A stretch of DNA of 50,003 nucleotides from a virus (lineage: Duplodnaviria > Heunggongvirae > Uroviricota > Caudoviricetes). A program made the position numbers. Below are positions 42,001-48,000 of the stretch, piece after piece; within the stretch, counting starts at the first letter, position 1; every line of letters begins with the position of its first letter. The DNA lies in IMG/VR virus record IMGVR_UViG_2609459850_000002. The stretch is one strand, 5' to 3'.

Positions 42001-45000
42001 TCATCATGTCTGCGGTAACTTTTTGTTCGACCTCCCCGGTCAGCATATCCTGTGCTTCAGATTTTACTGGCCGCTCTTCGGTTACCCGGGATTCACCTTC
42101 GCCAGCCAGAAACCAGGTGTGACCAGTTTTATCAACGACGCCATTTCTTTTGAGTTCCCACAGCTCGTTGAGAACCTCTTCACGACTGATATCAAGTCGC
42201 GCGGCCAGTTCTACCGATGTGGCTTTTCCCATTGCTTTCAGTGCGTCAAATACGGTTTCCATTAAAATTTCCTCCGACAAAATCGTTTCTCAGATTCAAA
42301 TAAAACCAGCTGCCTTCCGGCGTTCGTATTCCTGTTTCAGCCGTTCAATTGGCGTTGGCCCTTGCGGGTGTTTAGCCCCTTCCAGTTGTCGTCGCACTGG
42401 CGGAACACTCATCCCGTTACCAACATGCTTTGCCCATTTCGTCAGTTGCCGTTCCGCAAGTCGTTTTAACTCACCCTGCGTCATCTGGCGCTCAATCCCT
42501 CTGGTACGCATTTCGAGGCAGATGTGGTACAGCACAGGCTGAGGCCACGGATATTTGTCGCTTCCGTCATATCGCCAGGACTCATCACGCCAGCGGCGGT
42601 ACTCCTCCATCACAGCATCCACCGTCAGGCCAAATGGATTGGCCCCGCTTTCTGAAATCAGCGCCACAAACTCAGCCAGGTCCGGAGGCCATGTTTCACC
42701 CGCCCGGCAGCGGTCCATGCACTGGCGGCAGACCTGTCGGATTTGCTGCTCAGTCATCGCGCCAATCTGTGCAATCCAGAGCTTCGAAGGTGCGGCCCCG
42801 TTCTTCTGGGTCCAGCGGTTCGAATAAACCTCCCCCATGAGTTCCCACAGCTTCCAGACCGTTTCCGTCGCTGATAAATCCGTTTTCACGTTCCCACTGC
42901 TCACGTGCTGCCCGAATTTCCTGAACTGCCCGTGATGCGGTGCCACCTGGTGCTGCTGCATGGTTTACCCCCTTGCTGACTGGCTTAACCTGCGCCCTGA
43001 CGTGATTTACGTGACGGGCGAATTTCTGCTCCCACTGAACCTGCGTGAAAACTTTCCCCTCCGCTGCCCAGTAGTCCCGGAAAGCGGCAAGTTCAGCAGG
43101 TGTAAATTCCGGCTCCGGCAAAGCCATCCCCCACAACGCAGCCCGTCGTCGAAAATCCGGCGACGGATGCCAGTCATCGACCATCGGAAATTTCCCGATG
43201 GGTTCGCTCAGTCCATCCAGGGATGCAGGTTCTGCTGCCTGCAACGGCGTACCACTCGACTCACTGGTCGGAGCACTCTCGCGCACGTGCGCGTTATGTG
43301 TGGGGTTTAATTCTTTATCTGTATCTTTATCTGTCGTGACTCGTCGTGACATGTCGTGACATATGCGTGACTCGTCGTGACACCCCTCATTCTGTTTTCG
43401 TAATTTTTCCCTCTCGCGCTGCGCTCTCTTGCGCTCTGCCGGGGATTTCGCGGTTTGTGAAACGTTGCCATTGTCCTCTTTCAGTACCTGGCGTTTTTCC
43501 CATCCGGTGATTAAATCTCCATCAAGTACCCGCCCCTGCATTGCCTGTAAAATTAAATCAATTACTTCTTCCGTCACATCAAGCGCACTTGCTAAATCTT
43601 CCGTCGTGACATCAATGTGACCACGTAGTGACACGCCGTGACATGTCGTGACATTTCGTGACGCGCTCACCAGAAGGTGGATATACACTGCCATCACTGT
43701 TGCAATTGGCTGCCCTGACACCCTGGCAATTGTTCGCCACTTAGGGTCATTTGGCATGTCATGCCATAATCTGAGCCAGGCGTTAGCCATACTCACCTCT
43801 TCTGATACCGAATCTTTTTACTCACAAATTGCCGGAAGTGATCCGGTATGAATATTGCGAGTCAATGCACAGCCACAATATTTCCTGCAGGGCCACCACG
43901 ATTCATCTGGTTGAAACCAGCGATCGCCACTGCGACAAAATCATCAGCGTCTCTCACCAGTCGTTCCCGCGTCTCCACCAGCTCCCGAAAATAAGCTGAA
44001 CTGTGGCTGCGCATTCGGGCCACCAGCAGAGGCGGCATTGCTTTTTCGATCGCTGGTAACAACGCCTGAATTTTTTTAACCGCATCAGGAGTGTCTTTCT
44101 CCACCCAGCGGAAAATTTTCTGGGTATTGCGAGCCAGGGCTTCCGGATGGCTGTCGTCATATAATTCCGGGAACGTCATACCAAGCTCAAAATAAGCCCG
44201 GGTTATTTCAGCTGCCGGAACTTTTTCACCGTCCGGATGCGCCCAGGCATTCATCGCCATGCGGATGTGCTCATGCCTGATTTTCATGAATCAACTCCGA
44301 TGCATTTGGTGTGTTAGCCTTGAATCCAACAGGTAAGCCGTCGGTTGGATTCGGGTAAATATCAGGCCGGAGTTCATGAGGTGTAACCTCGAAATTCGTT
44401 ACTTCAGCAACACGTAATGCTTTTTCAGGGCTGAATCTTTCATAGCCCCCCAGCACTCGACTTACATGCACCTGAGATAAACCCGTTAGCTTCCCAAACT
44501 GTAGCTGGGTGATATGTTTCTCTTTTAAATAGTCTCTTAAGTTCATAGCCAACCTTCTACGTTATGCCTCGAGCAAATATTAGCCCCGCTAATTTTAAAG
44601 ATCAATAGCCAGACTATCTTTGATAATATTGGTAAAACAAATAAACTCTATGTATGAAAAAAACACGCGAAGTGATTGCAACTCCAGAAGCGAGCAAGAA
44701 TTTAAAAGCCGCATGGAATGCAAGAAAAAAAGAGCTGAAGCTGACTCAAGAGCTGGCGGCTGAGTTGTTGGGATTCGAATCTCAAGGCACCGTTAGCCAG
44801 TATCTGAACGGCAAGATACCGGTAAATACCGACGCTGCGCTAAAATTTGCGGCTCTGTTAAAGGTAAAACCAGAGGACATTCGAGAAGACCTTAAAGACT
44901 TAATGAATTATGTAAGATCATCAGATACTTATGATGATAACTTTTCAGGCAAAGGATGGAGGCTGGTCAATGAAGAACAGGCAGAGTTACTTAACCTCTT

Positions 45001-48000
45001 CGAGATTCTACCTGCGTCAGAAAAAGCCAAACTCCTTAACCAGCTACGTGGACTAAACAAGCTCTACGAGGAAGCCTTCGAGAACATGCTGGCACTAAAG
45101 AAACGTAACCAGTAGCCACCGCTCACTACCCCATCCACAACAAAAAAAACCGACGTCTTAGTCGGTTTTTTTGTGCCATAACTTCTGCAAATCAGCTGTA
45201 TAACTAATATTTTTCCCTTGAAAAAACATTTACATAGTTACCAAATCAAAAATATCATACGCCATACTGTTGACTTAAAATATCCGCGTTACTAATATTT
45301 CTATCAAGAACAGCACGGCGCTGTAGGTTTTAGTTCCGCCACCCGGCGTTAAGGGGAAATGAGGTCAGCATGGATACTATCGAGCTTGGCAACAACGAAT
45401 CTCTGGTGTACGGCGTGTTTCCCAACCAGGACGGCACATTCACCGCGATGACGTATACCAAAAGCAAAACGTTTAAAACCGAAAATGGTGCCCGTCGCTG
45501 GCTGGAAAGAAACTCAGGTGAGTGATATGGATTTCGACACAATCATGGAAAAGGCTTACGAAGAATACTTCGATGGTCTTGCCGAAGGCGAAGAAGCTCT
45601 CAGCTTCAGTGAATTTAAACAGGCGCTTTCCAGTTCGGGAAAATCTAACGGCTGATAAGCGAAACAGCACCGCGAGGAATCAGTATGCAGAAACGAGAAC
45701 CCGTCATCATCGCGCCAGACTATACCGATGATGAACTTTATGAGTGGATGCGCCAGAAAATTAATGCAGTGCAGGATCTGAAATGGGCCAATGAAGCCAG
45801 GACTAAGCAGGCTGAAAATCTGTCCGCTCTGGAGCAGGATATCACCAGGCTGGAAAAAGCAGCGGCATTAAGCATTGCCAGAATGGTTACATACCCACGT
45901 TAATAGCTAACCAACGAGGCTAATAATGGAATTTAAAGATTTACCAATGCCATTCCAGGAAATGGCAGCGAATGTGGTTCGCTCTCAACTGGCGACTCTT
46001 GACCTGAGTACTGTAGAAAAGGAAACCATCGATACTATATCCGGTAACGTGCGTCGTGCCTTTATAGGTCTGTATGAAGAGAAGCGCCTATTCGGCGGAC
46101 AGAATTCGCCTGAAAACAAGAATCAAGCAAATGATGAGAAGCTGAAACACATTATCGCCTTACTTTTGGAAGACGCAAAACGTCTACAGCAACTGGAACC
46201 AAATGCAGGCACAGAGGCCCGCATTTGGATTGCCATGAAATCACTCAAATGTGAAAGCAGTGATTATTTCAAAACAACAATTAAAACTACTCAACTTTCG
46301 GGAGAGCTACTGAAGAAATTGCCATAAGAGCATGGTCTTTCTCTTGTTCTGCAAGATGAGCATTAATACCTGGTATGGTTTTTTCAAATTTATCTATCTG
46401 TTGAATAACAACTTCGCGGTATACGTTTGTTTTTGTACCACCAAGCGCAGCCGTTAATGCAGAAAGCATATTTAGTATCATATCAGTGCGATATGAAAGA
46501 ATCCTGATAGCTTCATCTTGTTTTTCAATAATAGATTGCAGGGCCTCAATTTGCTTTTTATCCATTTCACCCTCCTGAGGGTTGGTAATTAAGGAGTTCT
46601 CCACGGGTCAGGTGGAGTGCGTGCGCCGGACACGGGTGAACATCCGGCACTGACAGTTTACTGAAAGGATATGTCCCTGAAAAGTCAGGGCATAACGCGA
46701 AAGCGCACGGCGAAATTGGTCTCTCTGTACGGTGTCGTTAAATTTAGTTCGACCGTGCGCTTCCGGTTGTGGCACTCCGCGAAATGGCGCGGCGGTAAGT
46801 ATGGCGGGGGTATTTCTTCCCCCCTTGAGGACACCGGGGTGTCAGGTTGACCATACGCTTAAGTGACAACTCCGCTGCAACGCCCTCTGTTATCAATTTT
46901 CTGGTGACTTTTGGCGGTATCAGTTCTACTCCGTGACTGCTCTGCCGCCCTTTTTAAAGTGAATTTTGTGATGCGGTGAATGCGGCTCAGCGCACGCGGA
47001 ACAGTTAAAACCAAAAACAGTGTTATGGGTGGATTCTCTGTATCCGGCGTTAATTGTTAACTGGTTAACGTCACCTGGAGGCACCAGGCACCGCATCAAC
47101 AAAGTTCACTTCGGTGATGAAAGGTAGAGAAAATGTTGAATGTAGCTATTGAAAACCAGAACGGGTGGAATTATAGTGCACCTGCACCTCATAAAACGGG
47201 TGCCGGGCGTGGAAACCCGAAATCATTCACGGCGCATAACCGCGCTCAGGCGGTTTTTTTATGCGTTAAGCACAGCCACATTCGCATTATGGTGGGGCGT
47301 GCAGGGCAGCCGCAAGGCTGGCCGGGTTCCGTGATGACCGGTATTTCCACCCCTGTACGTCTCACCACCCTTATGGTCGTGGAAAACCTCGGTGGTGAGT
47401 TAATCAAATTCATCGCGGAGGCTGCCATCATGGCTACTATCCTTACCCTTTCTCACCCTGACGTAACCATCGAAAATGGTCGCGCTGTCACTACGTCTGT
47501 TGCGATCGCCGAGTTCTTTGGCAAACGCCACGAACGAGTGTTGGATAAAATTCGCAATCTGGACTGTTCAGCAAAATTCACTGAGCACAATTTTGTGTCG
47601 AGCGAATACACCGACTCAACCGGGCGCAAACTCCCAATGTACCAAATCACCAAAAACGGCTTCGTTTTCCTGGTGATGGGCTTCACTGGCAAAAAAGCCG
47701 CTGCATTTAAAGAGGCATACATTGCTGAGTTCGACCGCATGGAAGCTGAACTGCGCCAGAATAACGCCCCGTCTCCCGACAAAATGATTCACGGGGACGG
47801 ACGCACCCTGGTTATCCGTCTCGACGAACACGGCAATATCAAATTCACTGAAACCGTTCCTGACGGCGCAATGGTCTGCACCCTGGATACCTTCCTGTTT
47901 TATCTGGAGCAACAAGGCTGGACTCTTGTAAACCGGAGCGCAATTAAAAATATGACTGTGGAGCAATTGCTAAAAATTCATTGTTGAGGACGCGATAATG

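Follow-up and report, generated by a model that had tools for sequence, protein, structure and literature searches.

In phage lambda, the repressor and cro genes are read from divergent promoters, and 17-bp operators with outer TAT...ATA lie over the spacer and -10 of PR and PL. A related switch operates in the Qin prophage, where DicA acts as a repressor of dicC and dicBp and as an activator of the dicA gene (PMC3441716, PMC10448788), and in prophage CP-933P the PR and PL operators are shared (PMC8630535). The repressor mRNAs of several such prophages are leaderless: those of dicA, racR, and ymfK were found to be so by differential RNA sequencing (dRNA-seq) (PMC4681348), and that of paaR2 in CP-933P by 5' RACE (in which the ends of cDNAs are rapidly amplified), N-terminal sequencing, and mass spectrometry (PMC8630535), while a ribosome profiling study lists racR, dicA, and cohE as 'known leaderless genes' (PMC8794815). 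Here, we describe the immunity region (positions 44547-45305) of the IMG/VR virus record IMGVR_UViG_2609459850_000002, a stretch of 50,003 nucleotides (hereafter, the window) that is an Escherichia coli lambdoid prophage and whose positions 44200-45400 are 100% identical to the NCCP15648 chromosome. Judging from the sequence and its relatives, we consider it probable (about 0.8) that this region is a lambda-style prophage immunity switch, in which one repressor would act on 17-bp dyads at three promoters and would be made from a leaderless mRNA. An initial annotation of the window had already read the region as an immunity region, and the gene content, the layout, the terminator, and the dicBp/PL-like promoter all support that reading. 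The elements of the switch are as follows.

44271..44546, minus strand: Cro-like gene of the YdaS/DicC type, 91 aa (Pfam YdaS_toxin and HTH_3)
44577..44605, minus strand: promoter of the Cro-like gene (pR analogue), TTGATC-N17-TAATAT, predicted start near 44570
44578..44594, no strand: putative operator A (OR1-like), TATTAG-CCCCG-CTAATT, centred at -68 relative to the repressor ATG and at about -16 relative to the pR start
44603..44619, no strand: candidate operator M (OR2-like), CAATAG-CCAGA-CTATCT, recognised by eye, centred at -43 and abutting the repressor -35
44620..44647, plus strand: repressor promoter (pRM analogue), TTGATA-N16-TAAACT, 9/12 in the promoter scan
44627..44643, no strand: putative operator B (OR3-like), TATTGG-TAAAA-CAAATA, centred at -19, on the repressor promoter
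44654..45115, plus strand: repressor gene, 153 aa (HTH_3), with the A of its ATG at 44654 as the predicted transcription start
45143..45172, both strands: bidirectional intrinsic terminator AAAAAAACCGAC-gtctta-GTCGGTTTTTTT, a perfect 12-nt inverted repeat
45270..45298, plus strand: pL/dicBp analogue, TTGACT-N17-TAATAT, 9/12 in the scan, predicted start near 45305
45281..45297, no strand: putative operator D (OL1-like), TATCCG-CGTTA-CTAATA, centred about -16 from the pL start

The arrangement is close to that of lambda. The Cro-like and repressor genes are divergent and lie 107 bp apart (105-107 bp from start to start in all relatives); as in lambda, their promoters diverge and the 17-bp sites with outer TAT...ATA cover the spacer and -10 of the pR and pL analogues. 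The OR3, OR2, and OR1 centres of lambda (NC_001416) lie at -19, -42, and -66 from the cI ATG, and those of B, M, and A at -19, -43, and -68. Lambda OR3 shares its last TA with the -10 TAGATT just as site B shares TA with TAAACT, and the sequence TAGATT-N6-ATG of cI corresponds to TAAACT-N6-ATG at the window repressor. The half-sites differ, being TATCAC in lambda and TATTAG in the window. Lambda also has an S24 C-terminal domain in its repressor, Cro and CII as partners, and N in the pL operon, whereas the window repressor has no such domain, its partners are YdaS and YdaT, and the pL operon holds ydfABC-DicF-dicB. Furthermore, the OR2 equivalent M is weak and a candidate only, unlike OR2 of lambda.

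The gene order of Qin is the same: a dicC-like gene, a dicA-like gene, a terminator, a promoter, and then ydfA-ydfB-ydfC-DicF-dicB. DicA resembles the window repressor in being short, in having no cleavage site, and in its homologous C-terminus, and in Qin, too, the operator covers spacer and -10 at both promoters, that of dicC and that of dicB, as at A and D. However, the Qin operator is TGTTAG-N6-CTAACA (18-20 bp) as against TATTAG-N5-CTAATA here, and the DicA operator Oc (TTGTTAGTCATAACTAACAA) is not carried by the window. The intergenic region of Qin is 83 bp with Oc centred near -60, as compared with 107 bp and -68 for site A, and the N-terminal domains of the two repressors align only as generic helix-turn-helix (HTH) domains, with 28% identity overall. 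Because the operator half-site, the spacing, and the N-terminal domain differ, the window repressor appears to have a different immunity specificity and not to be DicA itself. CP-933P has YdaS and YdaT partners and PRM, PR, and PL with shared operators, as here; its PaaR2 heads a toxin-antitoxin operon and its operators are 18-bp palindromes with the half-site GTTTAGTAA. The closest deposited phage is Rac-SA53 (KU052037; 97%), whose 'dicA/dicC' region is 97% identical in DNA from the Cro-like gene to the pL leader, with the same operators and promoters, and which beyond the leader carries rac11, kilR, and recE instead of ydfABC-DicF-dicB. Judged by its sequence, the locus shows the traits that define a lambdoid immunity switch and those that define the class of leaderless repressors. 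Its immunity allele is new and uncharacterised and belongs to a kind that is well known; no paper characterising it turned up in literature searches that were not aimed at the allele.

The promoters described in the initial annotation were recovered. On the minus strand, TTGATC (44605-44600) is followed after 17 nt by TAATAT (44582-44577) and then by GAAGG, 6 nt before the ATG of the Cro-like gene (44546); the duplex of this Shine-Dalgarno (SD) sequence with the anti-SD has a dG of -5.8 kcal/mol. This promoter is absent from the promoter-scan list because it scores 8/12, below the threshold, and both of its hexamers are kept in a 10-locus alignment. TTGACT-N17-TAATAT at 45270-45298 is the same promoter that the scan lists and has the position of dicBp in Qin; every relative has a pL-equivalent promoter downstream of its repressor gene. 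The annotation had called the repressor -10 weak and the pL promoter strong, a distinction that did not hold, as both score 9/12 and neither is exceptional by consensus. No variation was seen in the repressor promoter among 43 sequences of the lineage. The terminator predicted downstream of the repressor gene folds as a hairpin (45143-45172) on both strands, with RNA folding energies of -16.4 (plus) and -19.0 kcal/mol (minus) and z scores of -5.7 and -4.3, respectively. A further scan match, TTTACA-N18-TATCAT (45229-45258, 10/12), was rejected as a promoter, as it is not conserved in Rac-SA53 or E. ludwigii.

Comparison between lineages supports, as the operator, a dyad of 17 bp with the form TATTAG-N5-CTAATA that recurs in three fixed positions (A, D, and B). 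The comparison set comprised nine diverged relatives (58-97%) and about 80 viral contigs; the repressor relatives collected from Enterobacter, Hafnia, Serratia, and metagenomes have 58-93% protein identity. When a position-weight matrix was trained on nothing but the A and D sites from other lineages, A and D were the top matches in every one of the 10 loci, and B, which was never in the training set, was among the four best matches with its centre at -19 in 10/10 loci. By the same other-lineage matrix, site A is the best-scoring 17-mer of the whole 50-kb window, and site D is second-best in the region and sixth in the window. Site A lies in the spacer and -10 of the Cro-like promoter and has the same centre as the palindrome AAATATTAGC-ccc-GCTAATTTT, which the initial annotation had placed over the Cro-like -10 and which is present at 44575-44597. 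Site D occupies the spacer and -10 of the pL promoter in the same manner. The last two bases of site B are the first two of the repressor -10, and its left half is in the promoter spacer.

Two further patterns point in the same direction. The promoter-distal 11 nt of A and D co-vary by lineage, with a mean identity of 7.9, a value reached by 40 of 40,320 permutations; A matches its own pL site at 16/17 positions in Hafnia, 16/17 in lineage L013, and 15/17 in Serratia. Within the lineage of the window, polymorphism is concentrated in the central 5 bp: among the 43 unique sequences, the variant counts at site A are 48 in the 5-bp spacer and 4 in the 12 half-site positions, and those at site D are 36 in the spacer and 6 in the half-sites (spacers versus half-sites, Mann-Whitney p = 5e-5). 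Variable spacers between fixed arms are what would be expected for a dimer that recognises the arms rather than the centre. The spacers of A and D (44584-44588 and 45287-45291) are the most polymorphic positions of the region in natural isolates; the spacer of A takes at least nine forms, among them CCCCG, CCCTA, CTCCA, and CTCTA, with the arms fixed. This variation could reflect neutral drift or a tuning of affinity via DNA shape.

The claim of a shared operator is therefore supported as regards sites A and D, through the other-lineage matrix, the co-variation, and the polymorphism, but the unit is the 17-bp dyad and not the 8-mer CTAATATT that had been proposed. That list of sites also lacked operator B on the repressor promoter and a third copy of the motif. 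The 8-mer consists of the -10 TAATAT with a single neighbouring base at either end, and so combines a promoter element with an operator half-site; what argues for an operator is the partner half of the dyad, the polymorphism of the spacers, the co-variation of A and D, and site B.

Several points weigh against this interpretation. Site B is weak in the window, outside its top 25 matches, and its right half is partly constrained by the -10. The matrix is degenerate, with 8 window matches scoring at least 10 as against 4.7 expected, and its match counts in the window are about 1.5-2 times those of a Markov null; because these within-window statistics are weak, the operator case rests on the comparison between loci. 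In the window itself A and D agree at 11/17 positions, which does not exceed the agreement between sites paired across lineages. CTAATA owes some of its conservation to promoter constraint because it overlaps the -10 TAATAT, and the positional conservation is not fully independent evidence because the relatives are homologous. Finally, the cross-lineage matrix did not pick out site M in lineages further removed from that of the window, and for this reason M is kept as a candidate OR2 only. The spacer of M is polymorphic among the 43 sequences, as is one half-site position, and a counterpart of the same form in the same place, CAATAG-TCTAG-CTATTT, is found in the Stx2a phage Lys12581Vzw. In that phage (NC_049917, L097; 1354-1458), the repressor is an S24-type CI, its N-terminal domain is 50% identical to that of the window repressor, and OR has a three-dyad layout like that of the window. 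Because the -10 and the ATG are 10 nt apart there, with GGAGG in the interval, its repressor mRNA may not be strictly leaderless.

One more possible site was noted.

44563..44579, no strand: possible extra site TATGCC-TCGAG-CAAATA, over the pR start, centred at -83; uncertain

It overlaps A by 2 bp, its matrix score is 7.1, and its polymorphism pattern is not clean. Matches at -82/-83 occur in lineages L013, L009, and L011 (scores 6.6-11.2) and not in Hafnia or Serratia. A short palindrome on AATATT (GCAAATATTAGC) was rejected as the operator, since an HTH dimer would need a longer site and since its outer positions lack symmetry as well as conservation in the relatives.

The second part of the reading concerns the start of the repressor mRNA, which most likely begins at the A of the ATG (44654), as judged from the promoter geometry. 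With that A as its first base, the mRNA would have no leader, and its translation would begin at an AUG at the 5' end. In 12/12 tabulated lineages, the ATG is preceded, at a distance of exactly 6 nt, by a -10 of the form TAnnnT (TAAACT, TAAAAT, TAGAAT, or TAAGAT), while the six bases between them are not conserved, and the start codon is ATG in all 51 distinct upstream sequences. As the initial annotation had stated, the repressor ATG has no convincing SD: over the 20 nt upstream, the anti-SD duplex has a dG of +1.6 kcal/mol, compared with -5.8 for the Cro-like gene and a median of -4.0 for the long open reading frames (ORFs) of the window. Its proposal of a leaderless mRNA like that of lambda cI agrees with the sequence geometry and with the relatives, and the leaderless prediction is well supported and to be expected for this class of gene. 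A point on the other side is that in Serratia and in a group of 70% identity, G-rich hexamers abut the ATG, although they are too close for a normal SD.

The repressor mRNA might instead be leadered and translated by SD-independent initiation, starting upstream at GATAAT (44622-44627) or at a YdaT-dependent, PRE-like promoter inside the Cro-like gene. The relevant neighbour is the following gene.

43862-44287, minus strand: gene for YdaT, the CII equivalent (library matches)

The YdaT box is TTGATT-N6-AATCAA, and a copy with one mismatch (CTGATTTTCATGAATCAA) lies at 44277-44294, at the ydaS/ydaT junction; in CP-933P, the OM site adjoining PRE933P is at the same junction position. Two YdaT-box matches were found in the window against 2.5 expected, which is not above chance, and the argument is one of position. 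It suggests a YdaT-dependent establishment promoter directed toward the repressor gene, and with this copy in place a leadered establishment transcript probably exists too. No lambda CII box (TTGC-N6-TTGC) was found near the switch. As for GATAAT, the single further -10 candidate, it would be a good -10 by its sequence; it was rejected as the repressor -10, as it is not conserved in relatives, whereas all of them keep TAnnnT 6 nt ahead of the ATG. The constant distance of 6 nt, the use of ATG alone as start codon, and the geometry identical to that of lambda are what a leaderless maintenance transcript predicts, and four related prophage repressors are leaderless by experiment. Hence, we regard an exclusively leadered repressor mRNA as unlikely.

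The repressor itself matches Pfam HTH_3 and HTH_31 only, with no S24 peptidase. Its residues 12-78 align with the N-terminal domain of lambda CI in phmmer searches (3kz3, 1lmb, 1lli, 1rio, 7jvt, and 3bdn; E 2.6e-4 to 7e-3), a similarity that is marginal but consistent; the matches to PDB 3kz3 and 1lmb cover lambda CI residues 13-78 (E 3e-4 to 8e-4). The same domain is 50% identical to that of the S24-type CI of Stx2a phages. The C-terminal 42 aa are 38% identical to K-12 DicA (E 8e-6), and PHROG 5736 covers residues 103-152. In lambda structures, the glutamines that start helices 2 and 3 contact the A at operator position 2. Both glutamines are conserved in the window repressor and half-site position 2 is invariantly A, which we take as an argument of consistency only.

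The dyads could also be mainly sites of the Cro-like YdaS/DicC protein or of YdaT, with the 153-aa repressor reading something else. In CP-933P, the footprints of YdaS and PaaR2 overlap and the exact sequence each protein reads is unresolved; in Qin, DicA bound a single one of the sites in vivo, Oc, and neither Om nor Oa. However, lambdoid CI and Cro share sites, so that the two readings do not exclude each other. A lambda-CI-like N-terminal domain suits the 17-bp TAT...ATA dyad and its geometry, as do the conserved operator-contact glutamines with their invariant A, and for the prophage to be silent the lysogenic repressor has to occupy the pL site. We therefore find this alternative quite improbable.

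The remaining alternative turns on the copies of the shared motif. CTAATATT occurs three times in the window, at 44576 (minus), 45204 (plus), and 45292 (plus), as against 0.97 expected, and three matches were reached by 9/100 shuffles; with at most one mismatch, ACTAATATTT has 6 matches against 1.58 expected, a number reached by 0/100 shuffles. The count by itself is modestly significant, and the clustering of three copies within 720 bp is striking. The copy that belongs to neither promoter is the following.

45203..45212, plus strand: third ACTAATATTT copy, an orphan half-site, exact repeat of 45291-45300

This copy lies 88 bp upstream of the pL copy, is kept in Rac-SA53, E. ludwigii, and lineage L014, and shows a variant count of 1 in the 43 lineage sequences. 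Neither a dyad partner nor a -35 was found for it, and it was rejected as a promoter, there being no usable -35 on either strand and no upstream conservation in E. ludwigii. The orphan half-site may serve, for example, in looping, or something else. That CTAATATT merely reflects two promoters with the same -10 TAATAT plus a chance copy in AT-rich DNA, with the operators elsewhere or different, accounts for 6 of the 8 shared bases being the -10 hexamer, for the shuffle result, and for the 11/17 agreement of A and D, but is the least probable of the readings considered and very improbable in itself, since it is the promoter-distal half and spacer, not the promoter elements, that co-vary between A and D, the dyad partner is fixed in the lineage while the central 5 bp vary freely, the dyad recurs at B with its left half in a promoter spacer, and the third copy is conserved although it has no promoter.

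From this anatomy we infer which protein binds and the sign of each effect in the proposed lambda-style switch. In the lysogen, repressor dimers on A and D would stand in the way of RNA polymerase at two promoters, the Cro-like one and pL, over the spacer and -10 of each; because the half-site CTAATA and the -10 are the same DNA, bound repressor would cover the -10 directly. Occupancy of A and D would silence the replication and lysis functions and the dicBF-type operon (ydfABC-DicF-dicB). The repressor itself would be transcribed from TTGATA-N16-TAAACT, starting at the A of AUG. Site B, occupied at high repressor levels or by the Cro-like protein, would turn the repressor promoter off, giving negative autoregulation, and binding at A or M may stimulate that promoter, an effect reported both for PaaR2 and for DicA bound at Oc. 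Since the repressor has no S24 autopeptidase, it is not expected to undergo RecA-mediated cleavage, and induction would for the same reason more likely proceed via an antirepressor, in the way that Rem acts on DicA according to the DicA literature cited above.

The pL operon begins with the gene below.

45370..45525, plus strand: ydfA (DUF1391), first gene of the pL operon (Pfam DUF1391, E 7e-28; annotation of an identical RefSeq locus)

According to the annotation of the identical RefSeq locus, ydfA-ydfB-ydfC are followed by the DicF RNA and then by dicB. DicF was found within the operon at 46899-46950 (Rfam, 71.5 bits), with dicB further downstream. Because DicF and dicB are in the pL operon, the switch would control host cell-division inhibitors, as in Qin. 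At the other side of the switch, the Cro-like gene matches PHROG 35, transcriptional repressor (E 2e-25), and is annotated as YdaS family in NCCP15648.

The pL leader (45305-45369) is kept across immunity types and first genes, namely in Qin, Rac-SA53, E. ludwigii, lineages L011 and L012, and the 70%-identity group. It contains a hairpin, ACAGC-acggc-GCTGT, at about +5 to +19, flagged as terminator-like by the scan and followed by GTTCCGCCACCCGGCGTTAAGGGGA. The leader has no Rfam match, and covariation in the hairpin is weak, with one compensatory pair in 8 sequences; a permissive Rfam scan of 44500-45450 gave sub-threshold matches only, driven by the terminator. The leader could be an antitermination or attenuation element.

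Further along the operon, a 284-aa 'Rha family' (Rha/Ant-like) ORF at 47133-47987 overlaps Rfam matches to isrK (47184-47260) and C4 antisense RNA (47285-47372). Because of this overlap, the first approximately 100 codons of the ORF are probably RNA genes and not protein. The arrangement of isrK, C4, and Rha recalls the immI (c4-ant) module of P1 and the isrK-anrP antirepressor module of Gifsy, and by this analogy the Rha/Ant-like ORF is a candidate antirepressor or inducer of the S24-less repressor. Other Rfam matches in the window are two copies of the STnc100 small RNA (sRNA), two tRNA genes, and the sok antitoxin RNA (29953-30610, 30877-31033, and 37673-37848).

A more far-reaching joint reading can be offered tentatively, as possible but on balance doubtful. 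The repressor would be a natural chimera, in which a lambda-CI-type DNA-binding domain is joined to a DicA-type C-terminal domain, and the switch would keep the lambda OR geometry nearly to the base pair while obtaining cooperativity and self-activation via an unrelated oligomerisation domain. Induction would come from the Rha/Ant-like antirepressor module, with its C4 and isrK RNAs, in the switch's own pL operon, and OL and OR would be joined by long-range looping in which the orphan half-site at 45203-45212 takes part.

The immunity type is not confined to this prophage. The 771-bp switch region is present at 97% identity or higher in 180 of 5,426 complete E. coli genomes (about 3%); its carriers include ABU 83972, NCTC86, and strains labelled as uropathogenic E. 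coli (UPEC). The same type is present in E. albertii, the source of the single locus found in a scan of genome contigs.

These results provide a precise regulatory map, comprising the operators, three promoters, and a predicted transcription start, for the immunity type of about 3% of complete E. coli genomes. The current understanding of such switches is unchanged, and the value of the map is in annotation and in the design of reporter or induction experiments. The repressor predicted here would control a dicBF-type operon, which encodes a cell-division inhibitor and the DicF sRNA. It would also be one more case of the rule that the maintenance repressors of E. coli prophages are made from leaderless mRNAs.

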